From an uncultured Actinomycetota bacterium (GTDB lineage: Bacteria > Actinomycetota > Acidimicrobiia > Spongiisociales > UBA5794): a stretch of 64,000 nt of DNA. Positions within the stretch are counted from its first letter, which is position 1; each line of letters begins with the position of its first letter. A model generated the notes under the pieces. That model was not told the DNA's origin and did not search any database. It saw nothing but the letters and a program-made list of their open reading frames with translations. Position numbers and translations under genes: made by a program. This document shows, piece after piece, positions 5,716 to 45,526 of the stretch. The stretch spans positions 1,051 through 65,050 of the forward strand of contig CAWEEG010000020.1 of assembly GCA_963808015.1 (NCBI GenBank), in the 5' to 3' direction.

Positions 5716-5846
5716 GGGCCATGGAACCGTTTTACCCCCTCCCGCCTCGCTGGGTTCGGTCAGGTTCGGCTGATCGTGGGTTGTGGAACCGTTTGACCCC
5801 CTCCGCCTCGCTGGGCTCGGCACCTCCCCCCTGAGGGGGAGGAATC
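5716..5846. repeat. interspersed repeat family 1, copy A (two GGAACCGTTTGACCCCCTCCGCCTCGCTGGG units plus hairpin)
   Basis: 5722..5757 and 5783..5819 are direct sub-repeats. 5823..5842 (cctcccccctgagggggagg) is a GC hairpin. Related copies at 16836..16955, 38719..38965 and 56938..57000. Lies between convergent gene ends. Confidence 0.8.
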
Positions 5847-5864: not shown

Positions 5865-7883
5865 TCAGTTGAGGTTGAAGTCGCCGGCCACAGGGAGCCA
5901 ACCCGTTCCAGCGCCTTTCCAGGTGAACTGGGAATCGGCGTTGCCCTGCGTCAAGTCGTGCCGGAAATAGAACACCTGATTCGACGGCCGGAACAAACCC
6001 GGCGTGTCCTCACCATCCACGATCCCCCAGTCACCCGCAACGAATCGGTCACCCGGATCACCGAAGTAGAACTGCCCGTGCGCGACACCGGTCGACAACG
6101 TGTTGCGATAGTAGAAGAACCCCGTCGACTCACGATGCAGACCGACTTCGTCGATCCCGTCGCCATCCCAATCCCCCACCATCGGCTTATCACCCTGGTT
6201 ACCGAACAGGAATGAATAGTCCGCCGCCCCCAAACCGCCGCCATTCTGACCCAACGCGTTGATGATGTAGAACCGAGCCTCCAACGGCCGGTAGATCGAC
6301 AACGTGTCACACCCGTTCCCGTTGAAATCACCCGCAATCGGAACATCACCAGGATTCCCGAAGAAGAACGACACATCCGCAATCCCCTGCGAATTCGAGT
6401 TCCGGAGATACGCAAACCCATCCGACTGGCGATACAACCCCGGTGTGTCCTCCCCATCACAATCCCAGTCCCCCACAAACGGATAATCGCCAGGATCCCC
6501 GTAGTAGAACTCAGACACCACCCCCGCCGTGTTGCGCAGACGCCACATCCCCGATCCGGGATCCACCAACCCCACCGTGTGCGGCACACCGATCTTGATC
6601 GTCACCGTCGCCGTGTTCGACACACCCGAACGCGGGTCCTTCGCTGCGTACCGGAACGAATCCATCAACACCGCCGACCCATCGTGGCGATAGACGAACG
6701 TCCCATCCGTCGAGAACTTGAAACTCGCCGCATGGCTCGGACCCGTCACCAGCTTCGCAGTCAGATCCTCACCATCGGGATCCGAATCGTTCGCCAACAC
6801 CGTCGGACCCGCGAACGTCACACCCGGCCGCACATAGAACGGGCCATCGTCAACGGCCACCGGCGGCCGATTCACCGACTCCCAGTTGCCGTATTTCTCG
6901 TCCCCCTCGTGGTCCGTCAAATGACCCAAATTCGACCCATCCGGATCCACCATCCACAGATCCCAATCCCCATCGGCATCCGACGAAAACAAGATATGAC
7001 GCCCATCCGGCGACCACTCCGGCCAGTACTCATTCGATGTCGTCTTCGTGAGACGCAGAACGCGTGCACCGTTCGAGTCCATCACATAGAGATCGCGAGG
7101 ATTCCCACCCCGGTCCGAAATGAACGCGATCTTCGAACCATCCGGCGACCACGCCGGCATGAGCTCCATCGACGTCGGGCTCTTTGTCAGGTTCGTGACC
7201 CGAGTTCCATTCACACTCATCACGTAGATGTCGTCGGACCCATCCCGATTTGAACGGAACGCGATCGTCGAACCATCCGGCGACCAAGCGGGGTCGTCCT
7301 CGATACCGAGAGCAGTTCCCGGAGTGAGGTTCACCGGGTTGGATCCGTTCGCATCCATCACCCAGATATCGCTCGTCAAGATGCCCAAGGGGCTTCGAGC
7401 GAACACGATTCGCGAGCCGTCGGGCGACCACCTCGGATGGAATTCCGCCTCCTTGCTGTTCGTGAGGTTCTTCAACCCACTGCCGTCCGGAGCTACGACC
7501 CAGATATCGCGGGTGCCCGAGGCAAGGGACACAAAGGTGATTCTCTTTCCATCTGAAGACCAGTCCGGCGACTCCTCCGCCGCCACGAAGTTCGACGTCA
7601 GCTGACTCCACGCACCACCAGCGAAGTCCCGCGTGTAGAGCTCCCCACCACCTTCGGTGGACGTGAACACGATCCTGCCGACCGCGCCGGGCACGGTGGC
7701 ATCCGCAGCTTCCGGCACGACCGACAGACCCCCAACCGTCACAACAACGGCAACCAACAGAACCAGAAGATTGCGCACGATGTCCCCCTTGTCAAGACTC
7801 AGTGCCGATGCACCAATGCTCTCGCCAACAGCCGACACGGCCAGGGGAGAAAGCCCCTTTGGGACCTGATCTGTAGGCTTCAA
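5865..7883 (-). CDS. secreted TolB-like (PD40) beta-propeller / cadherin-like / FG-GAP repeat protein
   Basis: 672 aa. Hydrophobic signal-like segment LLVLLVAVVVTVGGLSVVPEAADA. Repeated WSPDGxxIxFxSxRxGxxDIYVM units. VNRPPVAVDD...ANDSDPDGEDL domain. Four or more C-terminal G(D/N)PGDxPxxGDWDGDG repeats. The true start may be internal (~7790). Confidence 0.75.
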   Translation of the reverse strand: MKPTDQVPKGLSPLAVSAVGESIGASALSLDKGDIVRNLLVLLVAVVVTVGGLSVVPEAADATVPGAVGRIVFTSTEGGGELYTRDFAGGAWSQLTSNFVAAEESPDWSSDGKRITFVSLASGTRDIWVVAPDGSGLKNLTNSKEAEFHPRWSPDGSRIVFARSPLGILTSDIWVMDANGSNPVNLTPGTALGIEDDPAWSPDGSTIAFRSNRDGSDDIYVMSVNGTRVTNLTKSPTSMELMPAWSPDGSKIAFISDRGGNPRDLYVMDSNGARVLRLTKTTSNEYWPEWSPDGRHILFSSDADGDWDLWMVDPDGSNLGHLTDHEGDEKYGNWESVNRPPVAVDDGPFYVRPGVTFAGPTVLANDSDPDGEDLTAKLVTGPSHAASFKFSTDGTFVYRHDGSAVLMDSFRYAAKDPRSGVSNTATVTIKIGVPHTVGLVDPGSGMWRLRNTAGVVSEFYYGDPGDYPFVGDWDCDGEDTPGLYRQSDGFAYLRNSNSQGIADVSFFFGNPGDVPIAGDFNGNGCDTLSIYRPLEARFYIINALGQNGGGLGAADYSFLFGNQGDKPMVGDWDGDGIDEVGLHRESTGFFYYRNTLSTGVAHGQFYFGDPGDRFVAGDWGIVDGEDTPGLFRPSNQVFYFRHDLTQGNADSQFTWKGAGTGWLPVAGDFNLN

Positions 7884-27903: not shown

Positions 27904-28710
27904 CTACTGCGGTGAGACCCCGATGACGAAGCGTTCCTTGCCGGAGAGGTCGATTCGGATTTCACCGCCGAGAGCCGAGAAGTGGTTTGCGACGGCGGCG
28001 CCGTGGAATTCTGAGATCTCGCAGACGATGACACCGCCGGGAATCAACCACACCGGGGCCGCCGCGGCGATCCTCGCTAGAACCTCATCTCCGACCGGGC
28101 CCGCAACGAGCGCTGACACGGGTTCATGGTCGCGGACGTCTGGAGGGAGGTCGTTCAGTTCGTGCTCTGCGATATACGGAGGGTTGGAGACAACGAGGTC
28201 AACCCTGCCGGCGATGTTCGCTGGCAGCGGTTCGAAGAGGTCGCCGTGGAACACCGTGACGTCCAACCCAGCCGTCCGCGCGTTCGCACGCGCCACGTCA
28301 ACGGCGTCTTCGGACAGATCAACGGCGTAGACCGTCGCCGATGGAAACGCGGCCTTGAGAGCGATCGCGAGATTTCCGCTCCCGGTGCAGAGGTCGACGA
28401 TGACGCTGGGTGCGTCAACCGCCTCACATGCAATCTCGAACAGTTGCTCGGTCTCGGGGCGGGGAATCAGAACGCGTGGATCGACGGACACTTCGATCGG
28501 CCCGAACGCTGCGATCCCCTCAATGTATTGAAGCGGCTCGTCGCTCCTGCGACGCTCGACGAAGCCGTTGAAGCGGCCCACCTGGGCAGCATCCAATTCA
28601 ACCCCGAGAATCAAGTCGGTCCAGTGCCACCCCGTAGCCGCGACGAGCAACCGCCGGACCTCGTGGTCGGGAAGGTCGGGGGCTGAGCGAAGCGCCTCGG
28701 AGGAGTTCAT
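27904..28710 (-). CDS. prmC: release-factor glutamine N5-methyltransferase
   Basis: 268 aa. Contains DLCTGSGNLAI (SAM motif) and VSNPPY. Lies downstream of prfA. Confidence 0.9.
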   Translation of the reverse strand: MNSSEALRSAPDLPDHEVRRLLVAATGWHWTDLILGVELDAAQVGRFNGFVERRRSDEPLQYIEGIAAFGPIEVSVDPRVLIPRPETEQLFEIACEAVDAPSVIVDLCTGSGNLAIALKAAFPSATVYAVDLSEDAVDVARANARTAGLDVTVFHGDLFEPLPANIAGRVDLVVSNPPYIAEHELNDLPPDVRDHEPVSALVAGPVGDEVLARIAAAAPVWLIPGGVIVCEISEFHGAAVANHFSALGGEIRIDLSGKERFVIGVSPQ

Positions 28711-28712
28711 GC

Positions 28713-28787
28713 CGAGACGCTAGACACGAGACACGAGACACGAGAACAGACACGCGTCGTGCTTGCCTGTGACATCCGGGGTCTCAC
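28713..28787. repeat. repeat family 2 (GAGACNN heptad array), copy 1, mostly one arm
   Basis: cGAGACGctaGACACGAGACACGAGACACGAGAACAGACACG at 28713..28756. A weak complementary arm (ggggtctcac) lies at 28778..28787. Sits between the prfA stop and the prmC start. Confidence 0.7.
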
Positions 28788-32705: not shown

Positions 32706-33845
32706 TCAAGCAGATATGCCAGAAGCGAGACCGAGACTCGAGACGAGAGAGCTTGAGACACGAGACCGAGGGAAGGGTCGGGTCTCGGGTCTTGTGTCTC
32801 GGATCTCGGGTCTGTCCTCGACTACCAGCCCAGGATACTCGAGGACCGCATCGAGCCTCGGCGTCACGGGGCCCGGGAGGTCGGCTTCGATCACGGCGGT
32901 CTCGGGATCCTTCAGACCATGGCCGGTGAGGGTGCACACGATGGGGCCGTCCGGCAGTTCGTCGCGATACTTCAGGATCCCTGCAACACCGGCAGCTGAG
33001 GCAGGCTCGCAGAACACTCCTTCACGGGTGGCCAGGAATCGGTAGGCGTCGAGGATCTCATCGTCGGTGACGGCCTCGATTCGACCGCCGGATTCGTCTC
33101 GGGCCGCGACGGCTCCATCCCACGAGGCCGGGTTGCCGATTCGGATCGCCGTCGCAATCGTCTCGGGTTCGTCCACGATTTCTCCGTACACGATCGGCGC
33201 GGCGCCGGCCGCTTGGAATCCCCACATCAAGGGAGCCTCATCAACATCGGTGTATCCCTGCCAATAGGCGGTGATGTTCCCCGCGTTCCCGACAGGGAGT
33301 GCATGAACCGACGGCGCAGCGCCGAGAGTGTCCACGATCTCCCACGCGGCCGTCTTCTGGCCTGCGATTCGATACGGATTGATGGAGTTGACGAGCGCAA
33401 CGTCGTGGCTTCCGGTCAACTCCAGGACGATCGCAAGAGCATCGTCGAAGCTCCCGTCAATGGGAACAATCGTCGCGCCGTGCACGATCGCCTGAGCCAA
33501 CTTCCCGCGGGCGATCTTGCCGGACGGGATAACCACGATGGACGTGATGCCTGCGCGCTGCGCGTATGCAGCCGCCGACGCCGAGGTGTTCCCGGTCGAC
33601 GCACACGCCACGGCACGGGCTCCATCCTCTACCGCCTTCGACACCGCCAGGGTCATTCCGCGGTCCTTGAACGACCCGGTCGGATTGAGGCCCTCGAACT
33701 TGAGAAACACCTTCCGCTGAACGGCTTTCGAGAGTGCCGGCGCTGGAATGAGCGGCGTGTCGCCTTCGAGGAGGGTCACGACGGGCGTGTCCGGTCCCAC
33801 CGGGAGGCGATCCCGATATGCCTCGATGATGCCTTTGCGGCTCAT
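32706..33845 (-). CDS. thrC: threonine synthase (ORF 3-prime end runs through a repeat element)
   Basis: 379 aa. Contains [18 protein letters not shown] (PLP lysine motif), ASTGNTSAS and VGNAGN. The last ~35 aa ([21 protein letters not shown]...) are encoded by repeat family 2. Confidence 0.9.
32724..32820. repeat. repeat family 2 (inverted GAGACNN / NNGTCTC heptad arrays), copy 2
   Basis: The left arm aGCGAGACCGAGACTCGAGACGAGAGAGCTTGAGACACGAGACCGAG, the loop ggaagg, and the right arm GTCGGGTCTCGGGTCTTGTGTCTCGGATCTCGGGTCTG form a long imperfect hairpin. It overlaps the last ~35 codons of the thrC ORF. Confidence 0.8.
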
Positions 33846-36430: not shown

Positions 36431-36463
36431 AGGCGGGGCTCGCGAAGATCCGGATAGCCAACA

Positions 36464-36552
36464 CCAGACGCCAGACACGAGACAAGAGACACGAGACAGC
36501 GTCGCTGCGCGGGTCTCGGGTCTCGAGTCTCAGGTCTCGAGTCTCTTGTCTC
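36464..36552. repeat. repeat family 2, copy 3 (best hairpin)
   Basis: The left arm CCAGACGCCAGACACGAGACAAGAGACACGAGACA, the spacer gcgtcgctgcgcg, and the right arm GGTCTCGGGTCTCGAGTCTCAGGTCTCGAGTCTCTTGTCTCC. Sits exactly between the argS stop (36555) and the lysA start (36430). Confidence 0.85.
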
Positions 36553-38377: not shown

Positions 38378-38452
38378 GCCCCAGTAGCTCAGGGGATAGA
38401 GCGCCGGCCTCCGGAGCCGGGAGCGCAGGTTCGATTCCTGCCTGGGGCACCA
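38378..38452 (+). tRNA. tRNA-Arg (anticodon CCG), CCA encoded
   Basis: Hand-folded cloverleaf. Acceptor is GCCCCAG/CTGGGGC. D arm is GCTC-aggggata-GAGC. Anticodon arm is CCGGC-ctCCGga-GCCGG. T arm is GCAGG-ttcgatt-CCTGC. Discriminator is A, followed by CCA. Confidence 0.9.
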
Positions 38453-38586: not shown

Positions 38587-38617
38587 GAGCGAGGGTTCGA
38601 TTCCTGCCTGGGGCACC
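38587..38617 (+). repeat. degenerate duplicate of the tRNA-Arg 3-prime end (att-like remnant)
   Basis: gagcgAGggttcgattcctgcctggggcacc matches tRNA positions 38421..38451 at 29 of 31 nt. No matching 5-prime half precedes it, so it is not a tRNA gene. Confidence 0.75.
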
Positions 38618-38718
38618 GTTTCGCACTACGTGCGAAGTAGTCCGTCCCCTCTTCGGGACTTGTTGCGAACGGCTAGTCGCCGATTTGGTGTGTCACCCTG
38701 ACTGTGACCCATTCAATC

Positions 38719-38965
38719 CGATTCCTCCCCCTCCTTCGGATTCCTCCCCTCAGGGGGAGGTGGCGCCGCCAGGCGGCGGAGGGGGTCAAGCGGTTCCACG
38801 ACCCACGAAGACCCGCCGCGCCTGAACGGCTCTCGCACTGGAACGCTTTGACCCCCTCCGTCAGCGGCTCCGCCCGGGTTTTGGACATGATCCGACACAG
38901 GGAACCGTTGCGTCGCGTACGGGGAGGCTCCGCCGCTGCCACCTCCCCCTGAGGGTGAGGAATCG
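38719..38965. repeat. interspersed repeat family 1, copy C: two copies in inverted orientation
   Basis: 38719..38803 is a reverse-oriented copy (GATTCCTCCCCTCAGGGGGAGGTGgcgccgccaggcggCGGAGGGGGTCAAGCGGTTCCACgaccc). 38838..38965 is a forward copy (ctGGAACGcTTTGACCCCCTCCGtcagcgGCTC...CACCTCCCCCTGAGGGtGAGGAATCgg). Confidence 0.75.
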
Positions 38966-39158
38966 GACCGAACCCTGCCGCGGTGCCAACCGAAGCCTCC
39001 ACGTTGCCACCGACCAACCGTGGATTGAATCTGCGCAGTGGAGGCGAAGGCTCCAAGCCGCGCTCCGAATCTGCGAGTTGATGGGACACAGTTAGGGGCT
39101 ATTTCCCCTAAATCGGATCGCCTGTCCTTTGGCAGCAAGGGTTTCCGGACTCCTGACT

Positions 39159-45413: not shown

Positions 45414-45420
45414 GAAGAGT

Positions 45421-45526
45421 CAAGACTTGAGACACGAGACATGAGACTTGAGACAAGCGGCAGACCACCTGCCCGGACATCAAGCTGGATTGGTCTCGGA
45501 TCTCGGATCTCGGATCTCGGATCTGG
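45421..45526. repeat. repeat family 2, copy 4
   Basis: The left arm is CAAGACTTGAGACACGAGACATGAGACTTGAGACAAG, followed by a 34-nt spacer. The right arm is GGTCTCGGATCTCGGATCTCGGATCTCGGATCTGG, about four tandem TCTCGGA heptads. Lies between convergent stops (45413 and 45527). Confidence 0.8.

Follow-up and report, generated by a model that had tools for sequence, protein, structure and literature searches.

Introduction

Two kinds of short bacterial repeat, the CGTC-type repetitive extragenic palindromic (REP) sequences (2013) and the BoxC/PIT/TM motifs (1990s to 2015), are widespread and conserved, and both have been reported without a mobility gene or a known function. In family 1, the repeat described here, they are parts of one unit. 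Family 1 is an interspersed repeat of an uncultured actinobacterium (genome G000) and was noticed in a stretch of 64,000 nucleotides (contig C20:1051-65050 of the G000 assembly), referred to below as the window.

The CGTC-tagged REP superfamily, which includes Rickettsia RPE-4/-6 and Neisseria dRS3, is mostly alphaproteobacterial; its members often form head-to-head dimers, have intragenic copies and lack a dedicated transposase (Di Nocera, De Gregorio and Rocco 2013, PMC3733652). Their hairpin is defined by the tag CGTC (variants TGTC and CCTC), a stem of 8-9 bp with A-T at the first positions, a loop of 4-5 nt and a 3' CCA tail (PMC3733652). The triplex motifs BoxC/PIT/TMECO consist of three blocks related by complement and mirror (class II or class IV) (Hoyne et al. 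2000; Holder et al. 2015, PMC4666352), and the E. coli TMECO/BoxC/PIT element belongs to class II (Holder et al. 2015, PMC4666352). The loops allowed between the blocks were 0-10 nt in Hoyne et al. (2000) and 1-6 nt in Holder et al. (2015, PMC4666352). Since the published searches were limited to loops of at most 6-10 nt, the hairpin-linked blocks of family 1 would escape them.

Family 1 is a genuine family of small, selfish DNA units that form structures and do not code for protein; the kinds of repeat that it unites are known and their combination is new. On balance, we favour the view that this triplex-motif/REP-hairpin repeat represents the gene-less ends of a DUF559 cassette and that DUF559 is the likely recognising enzyme. 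This view draws on the anatomy and covariation of the unit, its turnover and in-frame copies, a carrier of the MITE type (a miniature transposable element with inverted repeats), and DUF559 genes which are bracketed by the repeats and matched to them clade by clade. The G000 assembly (2.05 Mb, 57 contigs, 63% G+C, 65% complete) was compared with the genomes of 20 sister species, which together with G000 make up a set of 21 genomes of the genus; G017 is the closest relative of G000.

Copy number and spread of family 1

The initial annotation had described one element at four loci of the window, 5716-5846 (copy A), 16836-16955 (copy B), 38719-38965 (copy C) and 56938-57000 (copy D). The sequences match this description, and a repeat search of the window recovered the family as D11, D14, I1-I3, I10 and I17. 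A unit profile searched with nhmmer over the 2.05-Mb assembly detected copies A, B and C with E-values of 1e-15 to 1e-18 and yielded 26 loci genome-wide at E<=1e-3 (best 1e-18). The partly deleted copy D was missed by this profile at E<=1; the repeat search aligned it with copy A over 47 nt at 79% and 25 nt at 92% identity. The 25-nt hairpin box matched 27 sites in G000 with up to 2 mismatches, and the same pattern read backwards, used as a control, matched none.

The hairpin box was found in all 20 sister species and was absent from the four other genera of the family that were sampled (4/4), and the exact pattern of the whole unit occurred in 2 of the 146 Acidimicrobiia genera sampled. The same architecture is also present in genuine Alphaproteobacteria, namely Caulobacter sp. 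AP07, a Caulobacteraceae metagenome-assembled genome (MAG) and Sphingomicrobium. Caulobacter AP07 carries 81 palindromes of the hairpin H type described below, arranged as the same dimers, and their usual C-rich box is not a mirror of the hairpin arm. Record titles suggest a broad spread across phyla, part of which is artefactual: the MAGs that bear the labels Kiloniellales, Saprospiraceae or Acidobacteria belong to the Acidimicrobiia and are closely related to G000. The records concerned (L061, L067, L069-L071, L074, L095, L105 and L118) are titled Kiloniellales, Kiloniellaceae, Saprospiraceae, Gammaproteobacteria or Acidobacteria, and their labels look wrong because their proteins are 58-88% identical to those of G000.

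A search of Rfam (gathering and E-value thresholds) returned only tRNA, TPP riboswitch and chance hairpin matches and none for the unit, and a literature search with the motif strings gave no relevant match. The remark of the initial annotation that the consensus was not recognised as a named family nevertheless has to be amended, as the hairpin matches the CGTC-tagged REP superfamily and the three-block logic matches the BoxC/PIT/TM triplex motifs. Its reading of the element as a small non-autonomous repeat of the REP or MITE kind was borne out: the repeat is multi-copy, genus-wide, variably present at orthologous sites, found in frame inside genes and arranged in arrays made by tandem duplication, and one inverted dimer lies inside a MITE that has terminal inverted repeats and is flanked by a target-site duplication.

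Architecture and folding of the unit

The alignment of 19 complete units showed a constant order of box A, hairpin V, hairpin H and a GGAGGAAxx tail. Box A is C-rich (GACCCCCTCC; consensus (GGAACCGTT)TGACCCCCTCC). Hairpin V is variable in sequence and 14-26 nt in length, and hairpin H, CA-CCTCCCCC-TGA-GGGGGAGG, has an 8-bp stem. The unit ends in AATC in G000 and mostly in AAGA in the sister species. Units are arranged in three ways. Window copies A and B are (A-V)n-H arrays, and copy C is a head-to-head dimer, [H'V'A']...[AVH]; in the third arrangement H stands alone as a 27-bp palindrome (GATTCCTCCCCCTSAGGGGGAGGAATC). The parts of the window copies are as follows.

5722-5759, + strand: copy A, module 1 (degenerate), a GGAACCGTTTTACCCCCTCC box and a V-like segment
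5783-5846, + strand: copy A, module 2, with A box 5795-5804, V 5805-5822, H 5823-5842 and AATC tail (E 2e-15)
16836-16863, + strand: copy B, module 1, a degenerate A box TAACCCCCTCC
16881-16954, + strand: copy B, module 2, with A 16900-16909, V 16910-16931 (CGTC tag, CCA tail), H 16932-16950 and AATC 16951-16954 (E 2e-17)
38656-39030, + strand: 5'-truncated copy of a ~400-nt IS1380-type MITE, right repeat CCGTGGATTGAAT at 39018-39030
38739-38787, - strand: copy C, left unit, with H' 38743-38760, V' 38761-38777 and A' GGAGGGGGTC 38778-38787
38850-38964, + strand: copy C, right unit, with A 38850-38859, V 38860-38941, H 38942-38960 (GGGTGAGG variant) and AATC tail
56941-56985, - strand: copy D (reverse, degenerate), with H' remnant 56941-56957, V' 56958-56975 and A' GGGAGGGGGC 56976-56985

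The H 5' arm of copy A module 2 has one extra C. An extra partial copy of the arm lies on the left side of copy C at 38720-38738, and V of its right unit is split (38869-38929) by an insert of ~51 nt between 9-nt direct repeats GGCTCCGCC; the same split V was seen in all dimers borne by the MITE.

Hairpin V is a genuine case of conserved structure with free sequence. The mean minimum free energy (MFE) of its 84 distinct sequences is -8.1 kcal/mol, compared with -3.7 +/- 0.2 for shuffles. In the 22-nt class, compensatory changes occur at 5 of the 7 stem pairs and the covariation score is 0.197 versus 0.065; none of 500 shuffles reached 0.197 and slid controls gave far lower scores. The dimer of copy C folds into a long hairpin (z = -6.2). 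What is most constant in V is the C-G pair that closes the stem, the loop T-N-C, (C)GTC at the 5' end and CCA at the 3' end. In the 22-nt class, the invariant C10 of box A is followed by G11 and T12, conserved to at least 90%, and the invariant C13; at the other end C31 is conserved to at least 90% and A32 is invariant. GTC starts about half of the 84 variants and GCC, GGC or ACC the rest, and most variants end in CCA, GCA or ACA. V is flanked by CCTCC direct repeats, which might be a target duplication; no empty A-H site was found for comparison.

In several respects V resembles the CGTC-tagged REPs (PMC3733652). It has a CCA-type 3' tail and a variable stem sequence, the foot of the stem often being an A-T pair (A-U at the second stem position in 19/30 sequences); part of the variants also begin with the 5' CGTC tag. 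Family 1 occurs predominantly as dimers with the tagged ends facing each other, has intragenic copies, including copies in DNA replication genes, and has no flanking transposase. The group itself comes mostly from Alphaproteobacteria, a class in which Caulobacter and Sphingomicrobium have the family 1 architecture. On the other hand, the stem of 5-8 bp and the C-G-closed loop of 3 nt (T-N-C) are close to but outside the published 8-9 bp and 4-5 nt, and the exact CGTC tag is present in only about half of the V variants. The family 1 hairpin also always stands between the more conserved boxes A and H, an arrangement not described in PMC3733652, and its host belongs to an actinobacterial class not listed there. 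As stem and loop fall slightly below the published ranges, we call V CGTC-like rather than a proven member.

A protein-coding repeat as the primary nature of family 1 was rejected because the V lengths (14-26 nt) are not frame-constant. In 59 of the 84 distinct variants the length is 1 mod 3 (16, 19, 22 or 25 nt), which keeps both G-rich boxes in a Gly-rich frame (SPSGGG...DGGGQ); this bias may reflect selection for tolerable in-frame copies.

GAATC/GATTC sequences (GANTC, CcrM-type) mark the unit ends at 5842-5846, 16950-16954, 38739-38743 and 38960-38964 in G000. Most sister species have GGAGGAAGA at this position, so the GANTC site is not conserved. The CIR repeats of Caulobacter, said to have been described by Chen and Shapiro in 2003, are reportedly two-armed intergenic repeats of ~110 bp with conserved GANTC sites.

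Mirror relation between box A and hairpin H

The H 5' arm (CCTCCCCC), which is the pyrimidine arm, gives box A (CCCCCTCC) when read backwards without being complemented. A survey of the 21 genus genomes with an unbiased pattern, in which three positions per block were left free, revealed three types.

Type I: A CCCCCTCC, H 5' arm CCTCCCCC, H 3' arm GGGGGAGG (about 105 rows)
Type II: A CCCCTTCC, H 5' arm CCTTCCCC, H 3' arm GGGGAAGG (10 rows)
Type III: A CCCCTCCC, H 5' arm CCCTCCCC, H 3' arm GGGGAGGG (13 rows)

Among the 24 units with coherent type II or type III arms, 23 have a mirror-matched A box. The third block has therefore changed along with the duplex, keeping T opposite A and parallel to the purine arm. 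A finder for exact three-block triplex units detected 15 units in G000 and none in the shuffled genome.

Like the intrastrand triplex motifs BoxC/PIT/TM, the unit contains three homopurine/homopyrimidine blocks related by complement and mirror. On the strand that reads A-V-H, which is the strand used in the initial annotation, the blocks would fit the pyrimidine-motif class IV rule. On the opposite strand, GGAGGGGG runs antiparallel to GGGGGAGG and a purine-motif class II triplex is predicted. From these relations we infer that the units may form triplexes. Family 1 shares further traits with BoxC/PIT/TMECO (PMC4666352): intergenic location, high conservation, occurrence singly or as inverted pairs, a tie to local sequence instability, and the lack of a reported function or mobility gene. 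It differs from them in the linker, since the H loop has 3 nt and the third block is joined through a REP-like hairpin of 14-40 nt instead of a loop of at most 10 nt, so that the short-loop rule of the triplex motifs does not hold. Moreover, the blocks are 8 nt long, their sequence is not that of TMECO, copies also lie inside genes and the motif brackets a DUF559 gene.

Association with DUF559 genes

The initial annotation had named a REP-associated tyrosine transposase (RAYT) or another gene as a possible partner, and a candidate of the second kind was found. DUF559 (PF04480) is encoded in 18 of the 21 genus genomes. A clade 1 DUF559 gene of ~120 codons (MPRFPRHPFAERRAKELR...) lies between complete inverted family 1 units, [A-V-H]-gene-[H'-V'-A'], in G001, G002, G003 and G014, and the clade 1 gene of G010 is flanked by type II units. 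The strict finder, applied to 30 DUF559 loci of Acidimicrobiia, Sphingomicrobium and Caulobacter AP07, placed a triplex unit within 260 nt of the gene at 18 loci, on both sides at 8 of them; elsewhere in the same loci it found 7 units in 60.6 kb, which corresponds to a roughly tenfold enrichment near DUF559.

The clades of the DUF559 tree match the flanking repeat families, and G014 contains all three clades, each with its own repeat.

Clade 1 (identity within the clade 59-91%): family 1
Clade F4 (identity 72-78%): GTCTCCCCCAC...GTGGGGGAGAC + hairpin + AGAGGGGG
Clade F3 (identity 62-67%): GTCCCCCCG...CGGGGGGAC + hairpin + GCAGGGGGGC

An F4-type triplex repeat (GTCTCCCCCAC-n4-7-GTGGGGGAGAC + hairpin + AGAGGGGGC) brackets the second DUF559 clade at L216 (1347-1448 and 1888-1946), L214 and L227, and an F3-type triplex repeat brackets the third clade at L215, L228 and L238.

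The DUF559 protein matches PDB entry 3hrl, an 'endonuclease-like protein' with a nuclease fold (E 3e-24), and a survey of PD-(D/E)XK proteins groups DUF559 with Vsr and a group I intron homing endonuclease (PMC3424549). A literature search found no paper linking DUF559 to repeats. The closest parallel is the REPIN-RAYT system (REPtrons), in which, as here, many gene-less hairpin repeats accompany one single-copy gene flanked by inverted copies, protein clades and repeat families are paired one to one, and inheritance is within the lineage. Unlike that system, the gene encodes a predicted PD-(D/E)XK DUF559 nuclease and not a Y1 HUH transposase, and the repeats around it are oriented oppositely to those of the gene-less dimers.

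A classical REP/REPIN family mobilised by a RAYT would also account for palindromic units, head-to-head dimers and extragenic location. This explanation is already largely refuted and very improbable: PF01797 occurs in only 1 of the 21 genus genomes, this sole gene is not flanked by family 1 boxes, the units have no GTAG tag, and CGTC REPs are reported without RAYT association (PMC3733652).

Proposed origin of the repeats

According to the cassette view favoured here, the scattered units would be amplified gene-less ends of a ~0.6-kb cassette, [A-V-H]-DUF559 gene-[H'-V'-A'], which is intact in sister species. By analogy with REPIN/RAYT, the Vsr/homing-endonuclease-like PD-(D/E)XK nuclease would recognise the folded ends, in which one strand would supply the three blocks of an intrastrand triple helix with the REP hairpin V as the linker. 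DUF559 may thus mobilise the units or act on them. The comparisons themselves show that arrays expand as the ~45-nt A-V module is duplicated in tandem, that head-to-head dimers are also copied passively inside an IS1380-type MITE, and that copies persist directly behind stop codons or, in frame, within disordered linkers of proteins.

Several results weigh against this proposal. No cut site, target-site duplication, terminal repeat or clean empty site was found for any short unit, and the short units overall fold no better than shuffles (z about +1). Only two independent variant types underlie the mirror covariation, and copies of the same type share a common descent. In Caulobacter AP07 the main repeat family shares the H hairpin but not the mirror relation of its C-rich box, and the strict finder passed only 1 of the 8 DUF559 loci of this strain. 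For the related motif of E. coli, no triplex was detected in vivo (PMC4666352). No DUF559 gene was detected in G000, the assembly of which is 65% complete with a third missing. Finally, the A boxes point inward in the gene-less dimers and outward in the gene cassette, so the dimers are not simple gene deletions.

A more general and more tentative idea is that DUF559 proteins are the missing dedicated partners of orphan CGTC-type REPs and BoxC/PIT motifs, each clade driving the copying or homing of its own repeat via folded, possibly triple-helical ends; on this view, one such system would have given rise to family 1 as its REPIN-like progeny. We regard this extension as possible rather than probable. 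The covariation of the third strand with the duplex, as a triplex would require, and the bracketing of nuclease genes clade by clade provide a testable hypothesis for the spread of the repeats, and make family 1 a natural system in which to ask whether proteins of the cell recognise intrastrand triplexes.

Genomic location and turnover

According to gene calls that are crude, 20 of the 26 loci in G000 are intergenic. The initial annotation placed copies A, B and D between convergent gene ends; genome-wide, this location is enriched (8 of 22 loci versus 18% of all gaps) without being exclusive. In the window, copy A ends 18 nt before the stop codon of a PD40 gene (5865-7883, - strand) and copy B lies 17 nt from the stop codon of atpC (16972-17301, - strand), so that H ends 17-18 nt past both stop codons. 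A strong bias of orientation relative to neighbouring genes was ruled out, the bias being weak (27 versus 17 of 87).

Copy D was thought to have been absorbed into the 3' end of an open reading frame. This is not the ancestral state, as the TAA stop codon of the DUF5317 gene (56917-56919) lies just upstream of the copy; what carries the G000 frame through copy D is a frameshift of 1 nt close to the 3' end, seen in comparison with G017 and G016. In the window the gene spans 56362-57060 and the frameshift adds ~47 codons; both a real change and an assembly error are possible.

True in-frame copies occur in other genes, where they are read on the strand opposite to that of the initial annotation. 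They were found in dnaX, in the linker that joins domain III to the C-terminal domain, in a Methyltransf_28 gene, twice in a DivIVA-like gene, and in genes for a cytochrome-b-like protein and a helix-turn-helix protein. These copies usually encode SSPSGGGG...DGGGQ and sit in disordered linkers. By adding flexible linkers that are translated, in dnaX and other essential genes, family 1 is a source of protein variation. The Rickettsia palindromic elements (RPE) are similar in being inserted in frame into functional genes and in providing a flexible Gly/Ser/Pro-rich linker segment; they differ in sequence and host, and most family 1 copies are extragenic.

Orthologous sites vary between species. 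G000, G006, G016, G018 and G008 have the dnaX unit, G006 as two identical copies in tandem, G017 and G010 lack it, and the methyltransferase insert is missing in G010 and G006. At the atpC site of copy B, a degraded version remains in G017 and none in G010. The dnaK-grpE gap holds a solo H in G010 and G006, A-V-H in G017 and (A-V)2-H in G000, where ~45 nt have been duplicated in tandem, almost exactly, to give the extra module.

These locations bear on an alternative in which family 1 is an RNA element beneficial to the host. Hairpins at 3' ends or between cistrons would end transcription or shield the mRNA from 3' exonucleases and be kept as useful, and DUF559 would be a bystander. Such a role at the RNA level would be consistent with the position of H 17-18 nt beyond the stop codons of genes that are transcribed into it, the simple H hairpin between dnaK and grpE in G010 and G006, the covarying V stem and the similar hairpins after stop codons in Caulobacter AP07. 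The dispersed-terminator alternative of the initial annotation, however, found no support: unit tails (GGAGGAATC and GGTG) have no T-run, which leaves a canonical terminator unsupported, no terminator was called at any element and terminator-like sites were as frequent as in shuffles. The related PIT elements showed no terminator activity either (PMC4666352). Together with the tolerated in-frame copies in dnaX, the methyltransferase gene and the DivIVA-like gene, the gain, loss and degradation of copies at orthologous sites and the weak orientation bias, this makes an RNA element unlikely.

Relation to an IS1380-type MITE

The initial annotation described copy C as two inverted copies, which is correct as far as it goes: its left and right units form a head-to-head dimer. 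This dimer, however, is the centre of a larger element of ~400 nt with 13-bp terminal inverted repeats (CCTGAATCCACGG), which in the window is truncated at its 5' end (about 38656-39030). G000 contains four full copies of this MITE as well as truncated ones. Duplications of 5 bp (CGAAG and CGTAG) surround MITE copies in G000, with a matching empty site in G017, and the insertions fall in the loop of a CCCCTCAC...GTGGGG hairpin. An IS1380-family element of G017 has similar ends (CCTCGATCCACCG) and a 5-bp duplication. The loop of the F4-type hairpin is the insertion target of the IS1380-type MITE (L176, G017 empty site).

Terminal repeats, target duplication and ends like those of an insertion sequence were found only for the ~400-nt dimer carrier. 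One might nevertheless regard all of family 1 as fragments or decay products of this MITE, moved in trans by an IS1380-family transposase, given that the dimer is central in it and that MITE arm sequence is present at about 8 of the 26 G000 loci. The short units (window copies A, B and D and those in dnaX and the methyltransferase gene) have no MITE arms, however, and in one MITE copy (contig C32) the centre is occupied by a solo H palindrome alone, which suggests that the family 1 dimer is a passenger. Since the repeat is also present in 20 of 20 sister species, compared with an IS1380 transposase in 3 of 21 genomes, and the same architecture occurs in Alphaproteobacteria, an origin from the MITE is very improbable.

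Just before the truncated MITE of the window, the 3' end of a tRNA gene (GGTTCGATTCCTGCCTGGGGCACC; gene at 38378-38449) recurs ~150 nt downstream at 38590-38613. The duplicated end resembles an att scar, as left by an element that integrated here or by its remnant.

Other repeats of the window

Hairpins of a second family, made of heptads (GAGACNN), lie at 28701-28759, 32755-32814, 36452-36545 and 45416-45525 of the window. In G000 they sometimes directly adjoin family 1 H palindromes (C49:66002, C45:44091 and C27:827). A separate repeat of ~124 nt (...CCCCAATCCACGGCCCACCCTGGCTCGAACAAGCACGAGCC...) stands beside heptad hairpins, with more than 20 copies in G006 and ~15 in G010; its sites in G000 are C45:43900-44030, C49:about 89150-89275, C7:112585, C30:36175 and C57:9576.
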